From positions 1 through 49,537 of the forward strand of contig JBHLQM010000020.1 in NCBI GenBank assembly GCA_048884785.1: a stretch of DNA of 49,537 nucleotides, in the 5' to 3' direction. Both the position numbers and the translations under genes were made by a program. The notes below the pieces were generated by a model that saw nothing but the letters and a program-made list of their open reading frames with translations, was not told the DNA's origin and searched no databases. Origin of the DNA: Candidatus Thorarchaeota archaeon (lineage in GTDB: Archaea > Asgardarchaeota > Thorarchaeia > Thorarchaeales > Thorarchaeaceae). The stretch's first letter is position 1. Each line of letters opens with the position of its first letter. This document shows, piece after piece, positions 14,871 through 47,582 of this stretch.

Positions 14871-15317
14871 GTGTTCAGTGTGCAAATAGCGTTAGATTAT
14901 GGAATGATTGCATTTGTAATCATGATTACCGAAACCGTGCTTCTCAGTGCATTAATAATAGGATGGCTCTACGGTGCAAGAAGAATGGACCTTAAACTTC
15001 ATCATCGGGTAGTATATCCGGTAGTTCTTGTTCATTTTCTAACAGTTGGCCTGTGGATGATACCAATAGCACTAGGACGAGTGTCAATAATGCTAGCTGA
15101 CCCAATCGGAAATCTGTATCAAATCATCCATGACACCCTAGGGATTCTTGGGATAGGACTAGGAATTGTGCTTACTATCATGTTTGCATTCAAGAGGGAC
15201 ATGCCTATTAAACTGCTTAAGAAAGCCCGGCCTCTGATGTTTCTAACAATTGGGGTTTGGATACTAGCTTTCATCCTAGGAGCCTATTGGTATCTAGTTG
15301 GACATGTGCTAGTATGA
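14871..15317 (+). CDS. 4-TM membrane protein with His residues in TM helices (DUF420/cytochrome b-like)
   Basis: LKLHHRVV...VH and IIHDTLG; four hydrophobic helices; GGAG RBS. Confidence 0.55.
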   Translation: MFSVQIALDYGMIAFVIMITETVLLSALIIGWLYGARRMDLKLHHRVVYPVVLVHFLTVGLWMIPIALGRVSIMLADPIGNLYQIIHDTLGILGIGLGIVLTIMFAFKRDMPIKLLKKARPLMFLTIGVWILAFILGAYWYLVGHVLV

Positions 15318-15389
15318 GGAAGAAACGTTCATAGTACAGTATTCGATACTCCGAAAACTGTATAATGGTTCAGTCGACCGTTTGGTGAA

Positions 15390-45237: not shown

Positions 45238-45312
45238 CTACTTCTTTCCCTTTTTCTTTGGAGCAGCGGTTTCTTTCTTCTTACCCTTGGCTGCGGGTTT
45301 CTTCTTTGACAA
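45238..45312 (-). CDS. Lys-rich micropeptide, 24 aa (MSKKKPAAKGKKKETAAPKKKGKK)
   Basis: Hand-translated. GAGGAG RBS 8 nt before TTG, TAG stop, downstream terminator. Confidence 0.65.
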   Translation of the reverse strand: MSKKKPAAKGKKKETAAPKKKGKK

Positions 45313-45465
45313 TTAATTTCTCCTCGTTGAAGTCCGGACATTTATTCTGTCCAGAGCACATGCGTTATACTCACCAACCGCGATCAGTGAGGGAGCTCGG
45401 ATGCTGGGCTTACACTGTCCCAAGGGATGTGCCAACACCCTGTCCTCGGCCCAGCTTTATCGCTC
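45313..45465 (-). promoter_or_regulatory. Structured 5' leader of the Lys-rich micropeptide
   Basis: Three stems (45403-45455, 45370-45391, 45333-45355). The G-U wobbles in the latter two form only on the minus strand. AATATAG TATA-like element at about 45486-45492. Confidence 0.5.
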
Positions 45466-45691
45466 TTGATTAAGAACGGAGTCTTCTATATTGCAGTTTG
45501 CATATTCTACCTCAGCTGATTTGAGGACCTAAATAGATTGACTAATTTAAATATAAGATAATGTGCGCTAAATTTCAGAGGGCGCTTTTCGGTTCTATAT
45601 TGAAATTCCAGTTGCTTGATCTTTACATCATTCCCAAATCGAAACATTCGTTTCTCGTGGTGATTAAATACAATTAAACTGGAAGGTATTG

Positions 45692-45982
45692 TGTGAGAGA
45701 GCAGGACTGAGGGCATAGCTATACTCAATCATGTTAGGTCTGTGAATCGGGGGGTTCCAGTCCGTGGTTTAGTTCTATATGTATGCCTTCTTTCTGTATG
45801 GCCCTACCCTAATGAGGGCTCAAGGGTGGGTCGTCTCTCACAGCGATTCGGACTTTATTAGGAATAGCACCAATCCATGATTAAGGAAGTTTCGTACTTC
45901 ATCTCATGGCGGGTGCGTGGGCTAGTTTTCCGTAATATGCCCTCATACGAGACCCCCTCTTACCGATTCCCACGAATCCGCC
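45692..45982 (+). ncRNA. Putative structured non-coding RNA or long cis-regulatory leader (unassigned)
   Basis: At least 6 helices of 7-14 bp with G-U pairs on the + strand; TATA-like ATTAAATA about 25 nt upstream; no credible ORF. Confidence 0.5.
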
Positions 45983-46130
45983 ACCTCTTAACAGGAGAGA
46001 TAATAGTAGGCTCAGCCCTGGTTACTGCAGAGAATTGGAAGAGTTATCCATCCTAGAATACGTCTACCTAGTTGCGTCAATGGCAAAGAAGATAGTTATC
46101 TCCCTGAGATACGAATGAATATCTACGTGA

Positions 46131-47582
46131 GTGGTATCAATGAAGAAGCATCAGCTACTTTCAGGGATATTTATCTTCATGCTAGTTTTGGTTATAGTAC
46201 CTAAAGTGACACCCGGATTCCAGTATGATGCGGCTCAAGCTGGGACTGGCGATGTCATTTCCTTTTCTGAAAACATTCTGCTTTCTACAAGGGATACGCC
46301 CTATGCACATCATGTGGAACCCACTTTGGCAATCTCTGACAATGGCACAATCTTTGCTGGTTGGAAAAACTCTGAAACGCATAATGGGGGTGGGGCAAGA
46401 GTGAGCGTGGTGAAATCAGTCGATGGCGGAGTAACTTGGACAGACCCGTACAATATGGATAAGTTCAATGAATTGAATACACGACAATCAGACCCTTGGC
46501 TGGTTTGGCATGATGATACACTGTATTATGCATATCTTGAGTACACTCTTGCACCTGGCTTTACACAATTGACTGTGGCTCAAAGCAACGACTATGGTGA
46601 GTCCTGGAATCCCGTTCAGGCATCCTATAACCAGTACTTTGCTGATAAGGAGACCATGGTGATAGCTGAAGATGGAACAGTATACCTTGCATACGATGAT
46701 GCGGACGTTTCAACATCTGATGGAAATGTGACACTGAGGGTCTCCCGTTCAACTGATGGAGGACTGTCGTTTGAAGAAGTCGGGACTATTGGCTTGCCAG
46801 ATCCCGGCCACTTGGGACCCTATCTAACCTTCAATTCAGAAGGCGATCTGTTTGTAGCGTGGAGCTGGTTGAATGAGAATTATGAAGGCAATATCTACGT
46901 AGCCAAGAGCACCGATGGCGGCGAGACCTTTGACACTCCTCGTTTAATCAATCCTGAGGGCAATTACTCCTACTTCGAAAATGTGAACGGGTATCCAGGG
47001 AAGAGTACATTGCCAGTAATCCGATTCGATGAGTATGGGCGGATGTATCTGCTCTGGGCGGATAAATACGAACCTGACGCGCATTCCCTTGATGTCTATA
47101 TGCGAATCTCACTTGACGATGGCGAGACATGGACCCAGAGATATCGTGTCAATCCCGAAACTATTGGTGACCAATGGCAACCTGATATGGATATCGATTC
47201 AGAAGGCAGAATACACATTGTATACTACAGTGAAGTGTTTGAAGAGTATCGTCCATTCTATGTTATAGTCAATATGACCGGGGATGAAGGTGACTTTCCA
47301 GTATTTGGAGATCCGATTCCTATTGCTAGTGAAACCACATCAAGCGATTTCACACGTCCAGGAGACTACTTCACAATTAGGCTTGATTCAGCGGATATTC
47401 CCCATGTCGTATGGTCAGATGGCCGGAACGATGAGATGGACATTTACTATGCTCATGGACTACTCACATCCAATCAACCAACGTTTCCACTTTTTGATGC
47501 GATACTGTTAGCTATAGGCACCATTGTGGTAGTCATTGCCGTAGTTGTGTTGGTGTATTTTGCTTGGAAGAGGAGGCGTTAG
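46131..47582 (+). CDS. Membrane-anchored BNR/Asp-box (sialidase-like beta-propeller) surface protein
   Basis: Signal peptide; Asp-boxes SVDGGVTW, SNDYGESW, STDGGLSF, STDGGETF and SLDDGETW; C-terminal TM + KRRR. Confidence 0.85.
   Translation: MVSMKKHQLLSGIFIFMLVLVIVPKVTPGFQYDAAQAGTGDVISFSENILLSTRDTPYAHHVEPTLAISDNGTIFAGWKNSETHNGGGARVSVVKSVDGGVTWTDPYNMDKFNELNTRQSDPWLVWHDDTLYYAYLEYTLAPGFTQLTVAQSNDYGESWNPVQASYNQYFADKETMVIAEDGTVYLAYDDADVSTSDGNVTLRVSRSTDGGLSFEEVGTIGLPDPGHLGPYLTFNSEGDLFVAWSWLNENYEGNIYVAKSTDGGETFDTPRLINPEGNYSYFENVNGYPGKSTLPVIRFDEYGRMYLLWADKYEPDAHSLDVYMRISLDDGETWTQRYRVNPETIGDQWQPDMDIDSEGRIHIVYYSEVFEEYRPFYVIVNMTGDEGDFPVFGDPIPIASETTSSDFTRPGDYFTIRLDSADIPHVVWSDGRNDEMDIYYAHGLLTSNQPTFPLFDAILLAIGTIVVVIAVVVLVYFAWKRRR

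Follow-up and report, generated by a model that had tools for sequence, protein, structure and literature searches.

Overall organization of the locus

The subject of this study is a structured stretch at positions 45692-45982 (+ strand) of contig JBHLQM010000020.1 from a Candidatus Thorarchaeota archaeon. The window, as the term is used below, is the whole 49,537-nt piece of this contig that was analyzed; it belongs to a 91%-complete metagenome-assembled genome (MAG), which is referred to as G000. The initial annotation had described the stretch as one RNA-like element of about 290 nt with mutually exclusive long helices. We found that it consists of two adjacent structured RNA units, not of one 290-nt element. 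The downstream unit, RNA-B, belongs to a multi-copy small RNA family that is uncatalogued and whose conserved part is called the module; it is a diverged member that stems from an old sibling lineage. The upstream unit, RNA-A, is a young, lineage-specific G-rich unit with its own TATA-like box. The orthologous block of a congeneric genome, G003, was used for comparison between species. The features of the locus on the + strand are as follows.

45663-45670, + strand: box A, TATA-like ATTAAATA, putative promoter of RNA-A, 30 nt before GTGAGAG (the first strand of the RNA-A closing helix)
45691-45843, + strand: RNA-A, G-rich three-way junction, from the folds of the window and G003 versions
45708-45717, + strand: first G-rich site (site 1), TGAGGGCATA, which perfectly complements the loop TATGCCCTCA of the module (45936-45945)
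45812-45819, + strand: second G-rich site (site 2), ATGAGGGC, located apically in hairpin B and complementary to GCCCUCAU of the module loop
45853-45862, + strand: box B, CTTTATTAGG, putative promoter from which the module copy would be transcribed, with the register seen in sibling copies
45884-45990, + strand: RNA-B, predicted transcript of the diverged sibling, with a leader hairpin (45886-45900) followed by the module; start placed at box B plus ~30 nt
45908-45921, + strand: 5' strand of stem P1, GGCGGGTGCGTGGG, pairing with 45969-45982, from family covariation
45926-45952, + strand: hairpin P2, composed of the stem UUUUCCGUA/UACGAGA with a single mismatch or bulge and the loop AUAUGCCCUCA (45935-45945)
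45953-45968, + strand: C-rich joining strand J, CCCCCTCTTACCGATT, which in alignments corresponds to the family strand CUCCCCCCUCCUACCACGAUU in diverged form
45969-45982, + strand: 3' strand of stem P1, CCCACGAATCCGCC, from family covariation
45983-45990, + strand: 3' tail, ACCTCTTA, corresponding to the family motif GCCACCU followed by pyrimidines

All of the helices listed in the initial annotation were found at the positions given there, although comparative support was obtained for only some of them. The reported GC enrichment was also evident, with a local content of 0.47-0.52 versus 0.35-0.40 just upstream. Compared with dinucleotide shuffles, the region 45685-45990 gave a folding z-score of -2.93 on the + strand, and the - strand was no better, with a z-score of -0.93. 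Two short open reading frames overlap the stretch, one of 73 aa on the - strand and one of 59 aa on the + strand, and a Pfam match was absent for both.

The Rfam 15 database was searched with the whole window at the gathering threshold, with positions 45250-46200 at E<=10, and with six canonical loci of the family. Neither the window nor the canonical copies matched a family at the gathering threshold, and only chance matches (SpR20 and RAGATH-10) appeared at E<=10, in agreement with the initial view of a non-coding RNA on the + strand that lacks an Rfam family. The signal recognition particle (SRP) RNA and RNase P RNA, which that annotation had already set aside, were likewise rejected: archaeal SRP RNA (RF01857) and RNase P RNA (RF00373) were unmatched in the window, and the genome carries both genes on other contigs, at C19:35561-35871 and C48:6076-6411, respectively. 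A full-text literature search found no paper describing the family.

Structure and conservation of the small RNA family

Copies of the module share a common anatomy composed of a covarying 14-bp stem (P1), a hairpin (P2) that has AUGCCCUCA as its invariant loop, a C-rich strand left unpaired and a tail reading CACCU. The oriented copies revealed an identical core of ~55 nt, GGGCUAGUUUUUCGUUACAUGCCCUCAAUUACGAAACUCCCCCCUCCUACCACGAUU, across at least 13 genera. The 14-nt arms around this core vary between genera yet remain complementary, and GCCACCU comes next. When homologues were collected and examined for covariation, as the initial annotation had suggested, P1 was found to covary across 38 copies (RNAalifold and explicit pair counting): compensatory changes on both sides were present in 9 of the 13 pairs, and 97.8% of the P1 cells were paired, compared with 36-56% when the 3' partner was slid by 1-3 columns. 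The G-U pairs in P1 fix the + strand. In canonical copies P2 is invariant (UUUCGU/ACGAAA), and in diverged copies it is compensated, as UUUUGAA/UUCGAAA in G003 and UUUGU/ACAAA in one copy of G006. CACCU follows P1 in almost all high-scoring copies, as part of the family motif GCCACCU, which leads into pyrimidines.

Canonical copies additionally contain a strong box resembling a transcription factor B recognition element and TATA element (BRE/TATA-like; AAAGGTTAATAAG or AAACTTTAATAAG) and, between this box and P1, a 5' hairpin. The G-rich parts of this hairpin, GGUAGG and GAGGG, complement the C-rich strand and the loop, and the canonical 5' leaders are more complementary to these two elements than the downstream flanks are. 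A word in some leaders that resembles U1 small nuclear RNA (ACUUACCU) was not conserved outside the genus and is explained by a local hairpin.

Other readings of the module were tried and rejected. A GGGC/GCCC pseudoknot within the module was discarded because GGG covaries with the 3' CCC of P1 (AGG/CCU in one copy). Although one frame is open throughout the module, a protein-coding reading was discarded because 1-nt indels occur between orthologues at the border of the joining strand and P1, the core lacks synonymous variation and the start codons are inconsistent. The acceptor-like GGCGGGU...ACCCGCC-ACC was not part of a tRNA, tRNA-Sec or tRNA-Pyl, as ARAGORN was negative for both the window and a canonical locus and a T-arm was absent. 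A Y RNA was rejected because TROVE/Ro60 (PF05731) was unmatched in the 91%-complete genome. An origin from a virus or mobile element was also rejected, since the C-rich strand was unmatched in viral contigs and neighbors of the integrase or TnpB type were absent.

Some copies carry insertions. The canonical copies L019:1501-1616 (G013) and L023:1437-1552 on the minus strand (G021) have 30-nt insertions at different points of the C-rich strand, which fold as hairpins of their own and leave P1 and P2 intact, and in one G123 copy the P2 loop is replaced by an insertion.

Structure of the window copy

A covariance model of the module built in this analysis (R1) matched the window at 45905-45988 on the + strand with 75.7 bits (E 5e-15). 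The canonical copy of the same genome, C41:11728-11819 on the minus strand, scored 119.5 bits, and a DNA search had shown window positions 45905-45986 to be ~80% identical to this second locus (C41:11714-11820, minus). Upon comparison, the window and canonical copies were found to have P1, P2 with the loop AUGCCCUCA and the GCCACCU tail in common, and the window copy has a diverged form of the C-rich strand. In particular, the loop motif lies at 45937-45945 of the window, and 13 of the 14 positions of the window P1 are paired, with one G-U.

Several differences were also present. The window copy has a mismatched P2 preceded by four U, whereas canonical copies have five. Its C-rich strand, GACCCCCUCUUACCGAUU, is recognizably homologous to that of the family, ACUCCCCCCUCCUACCACGAUU, and keeps CCCUC, but it is shortened and lacks CCUCCU; aligned directly with the canonical copies, CCCCCUCUUACC stands in place of CCCCCCUCCUACCAC. 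The distance from the promoter-like box to P1 is 54 nt in the window copy and ~75-80 nt in canonical copies, and only the former has a 150-nt RNA-A upstream. The second, old sibling lineage of the family is characterized by a box of the form YTTTATTAGGRA that precedes P1 by 54 nt and by a run of only four U ahead of P2. Two further diverged siblings were observed in the window genome, at G000:C117:168-247 and G000:C55 ~15300-15360; the latter keeps the loop and the C-rich strand, apparently lacks the 3' strand of P2, and was not reported by R1.

The mutually exclusive helices of the initial annotation are real in the window sequence, but only P1 has comparative support. Its competitor, the long hairpin at 45867-45916, overlaps and excludes P1; it is formed in the full-length minimum free energy (MFE) fold of the window, where it destroys P1. 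This hairpin is missing from the G003 orthologue, whose MFE fold forms P1, and half of it would fall upstream of the predicted start of RNA-B. Similarly, the pairing between 45744-45756 and 45951-45969 is present in the window and not retained in G003. The proposal of a single switch of ~290 nt could not be upheld: the 3' third is a widespread module with a promoter-like box of its own, and the 5' half is a lineage-specific add-on.

Structure of RNA-A and conservation of the block between two species

RNA-A is closed by a 9-bp helix between TGTGAGAGA (45692-45700) and TCTCTCACA (45834-45842), which encloses hairpin A (~45702-45797; apical GAAUC-GGGG-GGUUC at 45744-45757) and hairpin B (~45798-45833). 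Within hairpin A, GAGGGCATA at 45709-45717 pairs with TATGCCTTC at 45782-45790, with one G-U. The MFE of RNA-A is -66.5 kcal/mol (z -5.7 versus mononucleotide shuffles). The G003 version has 52% identity and showed the same closing helix and three-way junction. RNA-A was detected only in G000 and G003; a DNA search of 61 same-family genomes together with pattern scans of metagenome contigs and genome contigs returned, besides G003, two chance matches.

The region of homology between the two genomes starts at ~45642, and window 45642-45985 was the only alignable DNA between them. The flanking genes differ, with a methyltransferase and a BNR protein in G000 and a PPC/C13-like protein and an unknown protein in G003, and an orthologous protein pair of the two genomes is only 72% identical. 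At this level of protein identity, neutral intergenic DNA would be expected to be unrecognizable, and the block, alignable despite its different flanks, would therefore be under selection. The differences in P1 and P2 are compensatory. From G000 to G003, the top pair of P1 changes from G-C to A-U and its central mismatch becomes U-A, and the P2 stems also differ by compensatory change. Additionally, the full-length MFE fold of G003 is modular, with the junction, a linker carrying box B and the leader hairpin followed by P1 and P2. As judged by alignment of the two species, this pattern speaks in favor of selection acting on each of the units as well as on their linkage.

Both promoter-like boxes are conserved. 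The G003 orthologue (G003:C117) keeps the 30-nt spacing of box A and the flanking motif GTGGTGATTAWATA. Box B is nearly identical in G000 and G003, whereas its neighboring sequence is ~52% identical, and a box of this type (YTTTATTAGG) occurs 81-84 nt before ATGCCCTCA in the window and in G003, G012, G035 and G036, which represent three genera. Boxes A and B are candidate promoters, and by archaeal promoter geometry RNA-B would be transcribed from ~45884.

Complementarity between RNA-A and the module loop

RNA-A and the P2 loop share a 10-nt perfect complement in both species. Among dinucleotide shuffles, 23 of 2000 reached this length for the window and 12 of 2000 for G003, corresponding to p values of about 0.01 in each species. 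The G003 equivalents of the two G-rich sites are AAATGAGGGC for site 1 and GTGAGGGCAT, in hairpin B, for site 2. A loop change specific to the window (ACAUG to AUAUG, giving the variant UAUGCCC) is matched by GGGCAUA in site 1. In the predicted fold, site 1 is buried in the stem of hairpin A, where it is paired with UAUGCCUUC, itself a loop-like word, and site 2 is more exposed than site 1.

Distribution and genomic neighbors of the family

With R1, 25 of 26 same-family genomes gave a match, as did the one genome searched from a second family of the order, and 124 further genomes from the phylum gave none (0/124); the RNA family is confined to the family and order to which this archaeon belongs. 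By DNA search, the module was present in 29 of 36 same-family genomes. Copy numbers ranged from 1 to 7 per genome (R1) and are lower bounds, as many copies lie at contig ends. Copies at extreme contig ends were observed, for example, at G006:C395:2-83, G158:C13:1-67, G165:C7:1-67 and G132:C224:2-91; the invariant core probably breaks short-read assemblies, so that copy numbers in MAGs would be underestimated.

The best-scoring copy usually lies downstream of a radical SAM gene. In most genera the gene after this copy is PhzF-like; in the present genus an HD, TldD or GH3 gene takes that place. Other copies are found after histidine-kinase genes, between convergent genes or in tandem. The conserved upstream neighbor of the main copy (L002:1918-3105, minus; equivalents in ~20 loci) encodes a long protein with a Radical_SAM domain. 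Downstream of a radical SAM gene, tandem modules ~330-360 nt apart were observed at L073:1173-1259 and 1501-1591 (G017) and at L074:1028-1114 and 1393-1537 (G123).

In at least two genera, copies of a sibling lineage with low scores occur 83-99 nt downstream from a same-strand gene of ~304-323 aa; the loci are L085 (G007), L090 (G011), L092 (G158) and L100 (G026). The genes at L085 and L090, the two that were scanned, encode PAS-HisKA-HATPase histidine kinases, and this gene context constitutes a second conserved neighborhood for the family. On the side of the BNR gene that lies downstream of the element in the window, the BNR genes of the genus (L105-L109) have a conserved motif, GCATTGCGYCAACAGCAAAGRCAATACCCTT, ~60-90 nt before the start codon. 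A diverged form of this motif is present in the window at ~46073-46100, downstream of the element, and is probably the gene's own promoter or operator region.

Proposed function and alternative explanations

We propose that the two non-coding units form one block made of an anti-Shine-Dalgarno-type small RNA and a sponge-like or masking partner, a reading that we consider about evenly poised between right and wrong. The family has three CCUC-type words, namely, the loop GCCCUCA, the strand CCCCCCUCCU and the tail CACCUC/U. These words resemble the anti-Shine-Dalgarno end of 16S rRNA, the gene of which is unassembled in the MAG. In the window genome, GGAGG, GAGGT and GGTGA are enriched before start codons, and the window copy has unpaired words complementary to Shine-Dalgarno sequences in three places: CCCUC (P2 loop), CCCUCUU (joining strand) and CACCUCUU (tail). 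The CCUC-type motifs may control translation by pairing with purine-rich Shine-Dalgarno regions of mRNAs or, alternatively, by mimicking the 3' end of 16S rRNA. RNA-A would pair with these motifs and mask or titrate them, either in cis, if both units lie on a read-through transcript, or in trans, with RNA-B and the other siblings as targets.

A number of observations weigh against this proposal. The search of the window genome yielded no extended complement of the C-rich strand outside the family copies, and start regions were no better than internal controls in pairing with this strand at <= -16 kcal/mol (87 versus 80). The conservation of the ~55-nt core extends beyond what a seed needs, and this points to a core that is bound by a protein or acts catalytically. 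When RNA-A was paired as a whole duplex with the module interior of the window, the energy did not improve on that of shuffles (288/500); we regarded this test as uninformative, since G-rich and C-rich RNAs pair regardless of order, and much of the complementarity between RNA-A and the module is indeed a matter of G-rich versus C-rich composition. The comparison of RNA-A involves two sequences only. In the window copy, the weakened P2 is not predicted in the MFE fold, and with CCUCCU also lost, this copy may be decaying. The transcript ends and promoters, moreover, were placed from sequence alone.

The block could instead give rise to one transcript of ~295 nt that starts from box A and switches folds. 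RNA-A would then be an enlarged 5' domain that corresponds to the short, G-rich hairpin on the 5' side of canonical copies, and box B would be only a linker or secondary start. The canonical hairpin lies on the same transcript as the loop and C-rich strand that its G-rich parts complement, the window 5' end GGTATTGTGTGAGAGAGCA resembles the leader TGGTAGGTGTGTGAGAGCA of a canonical copy in G001, and the block is inherited as a unit; a long T-run is absent between RNA-A and RNA-B, so read-through is plausible. However, the resemblance to canonical leaders covers only a short segment, sibling copies without RNA-A keep box B in both sequence and register, and the only competitor of P1 is not conserved in G003, the MFE fold of which is modular; we regard a single switching transcript as unlikely. 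Decay of the whole locus, with RNA-B as a pseudogene and RNA-A as a rearranged remnant (e.g., inverted sibling fragments), would account for the lower score of the window copy (75.7 versus 119.5 bits), its weakened P2 and shortened C-rich strand, the confinement of RNA-A to two genomes and the module-like words in the reverse complement of RNA-A (GCCCTCA twice, and CCCCC). This explanation appears improbable, as debris would not be expected to be the only alignable block between two species with different flanks and 72% identity in an orthologous protein, to differ by compensatory changes in P1 and P2, to retain both promoter-like boxes and to fold into the same RNA-A junction. The initial annotation had also offered a riboswitch-like 5' leader of the downstream Asp-box/BNR surface-protein gene (46131/46140). 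The element does lie on the same strand, 150 nt upstream of this gene, but five orthologues of the gene in the genus lack the element while keeping their own conserved upstream motif, the G003 block adjoins unrelated genes, and the genes next to family copies are unrelated, with copies before them, behind them or converging on them in either orientation; a leader function is highly improbable. A cis-acting leader or riboswitch was rejected for the family in general as well, with neighbors in either orientation that include PhzF-like, HD, TldD, GH3, BNR, histidine kinase and radical SAM genes.

The family could also be a ribonucleoprotein (RNP) scaffold or a catalytic or ligand-binding RNA, with the loop and C-rich strand forming a tertiary core and the G-rich 5' parts and RNA-A serving as structural partners such as kissing loops. 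An identical ~55-nt core across at least 13 genera, covarying stems and tolerance of ~30-nt hairpin insertions form a pattern typical of ribozyme, riboswitch or RNP cores. Targets were not found in the genome and start-region searches, and the main copy occupies a conserved place after the radical SAM gene, as a vertically inherited housekeeping RNA would. On the other hand, known ribozyme, riboswitch and RNP families were unmatched in Rfam 15, a TROVE/Ro protein was not found in the genome, a consistently adjacent protein gene was not seen, and the free orientation of the copies relative to their neighbors speaks against a cis-acting riboswitch. We consider an RNP or catalytic role somewhat unlikely, though a serious rival to the proposed one. 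Returning to the small RNA and its partner, a bolder version may be put forward tentatively, and we hold it to be fairly unlikely: a C-rich small RNA and a dedicated upstream G-rich anti-small RNA, acting as a sponge or lid that titrates the invariant loop common to all siblings of an order-wide family, would be inherited as one block. If true, this would be a tandem pair of small RNA and sponge in the archaeal lineage closest to eukaryotes. More radically, the core could be that of a new ribozyme or RNP.

Comparison with known systems

To our knowledge, almost nothing is known of the regulatory RNAs of Asgard archaea. The present family occurs in nearly every sampled genome of one archaeal family, its core is more conserved than most of the compared proteins, which makes it a strong candidate for having an important role, either in controlling translation or as an RNP. 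The locus described here represents a natural experiment, in which a diverged sibling is fused to a lineage-specific G-rich partner; it offers concrete sequences for mutation, which could show whether the invariant C-rich loop acts by base pairing.

Among archaeal RNAs, sRNA41 of Methanosarcina mazei is an intergenic small RNA proposed to mask ribosome-binding sites (PMC5867862). It has no homology to the present family, and it has identified targets, the ACDS operons (PMC5867862), whereas our genome search yielded none.

The cuckoo/CcsR RNAs (RSs0680) of Alphaproteobacteria are multi-copy, C-rich anti-Shine-Dalgarno small RNAs (PMC4615179). They are similar to the present family in being multi-copy and taxonomically restricted and in having one primary conserved neighborhood with scattered extra copies (PMC4615179), and both have covarying stems at a C-rich, anti-Shine-Dalgarno-like motif (CCUCCUCCC in cuckoo and CCCCCCUCCU here). 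The two families are nevertheless without homology in sequence or structure, one being bacterial and the other archaeal. Cuckoo RNAs consist of simple hairpins in tandem and are little conserved outside the motif, whereas the present family has a ~55-nt invariant core closed by a long stem, and its function is proposed from sequence.

For RNA-A, the closest parallels are the G-rich sponge RosA of the C-rich small RNAs RoxS and FsrA in Bacillus subtilis and RsaI in Staphylococcus (PMC8216469). RosA and RsaI are separate RNAs, ~150-230 nt long, in which two or three G-rich regions complement C-rich regions of small RNAs (PMC8216469), and RNA-A likewise has two GAGGGC sites complementary to the family loop. 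Of these, site 1 is stem-buried in the predicted fold. RosA is encoded elsewhere than RoxS, and cross-linking and genetics showed that it binds and destabilizes RoxS (PMC8216469). In contrast, the pairing of RNA-A is a predicted one, and RNA-A is encoded directly upstream of its putative partner, with which it is possibly co-transcribed.

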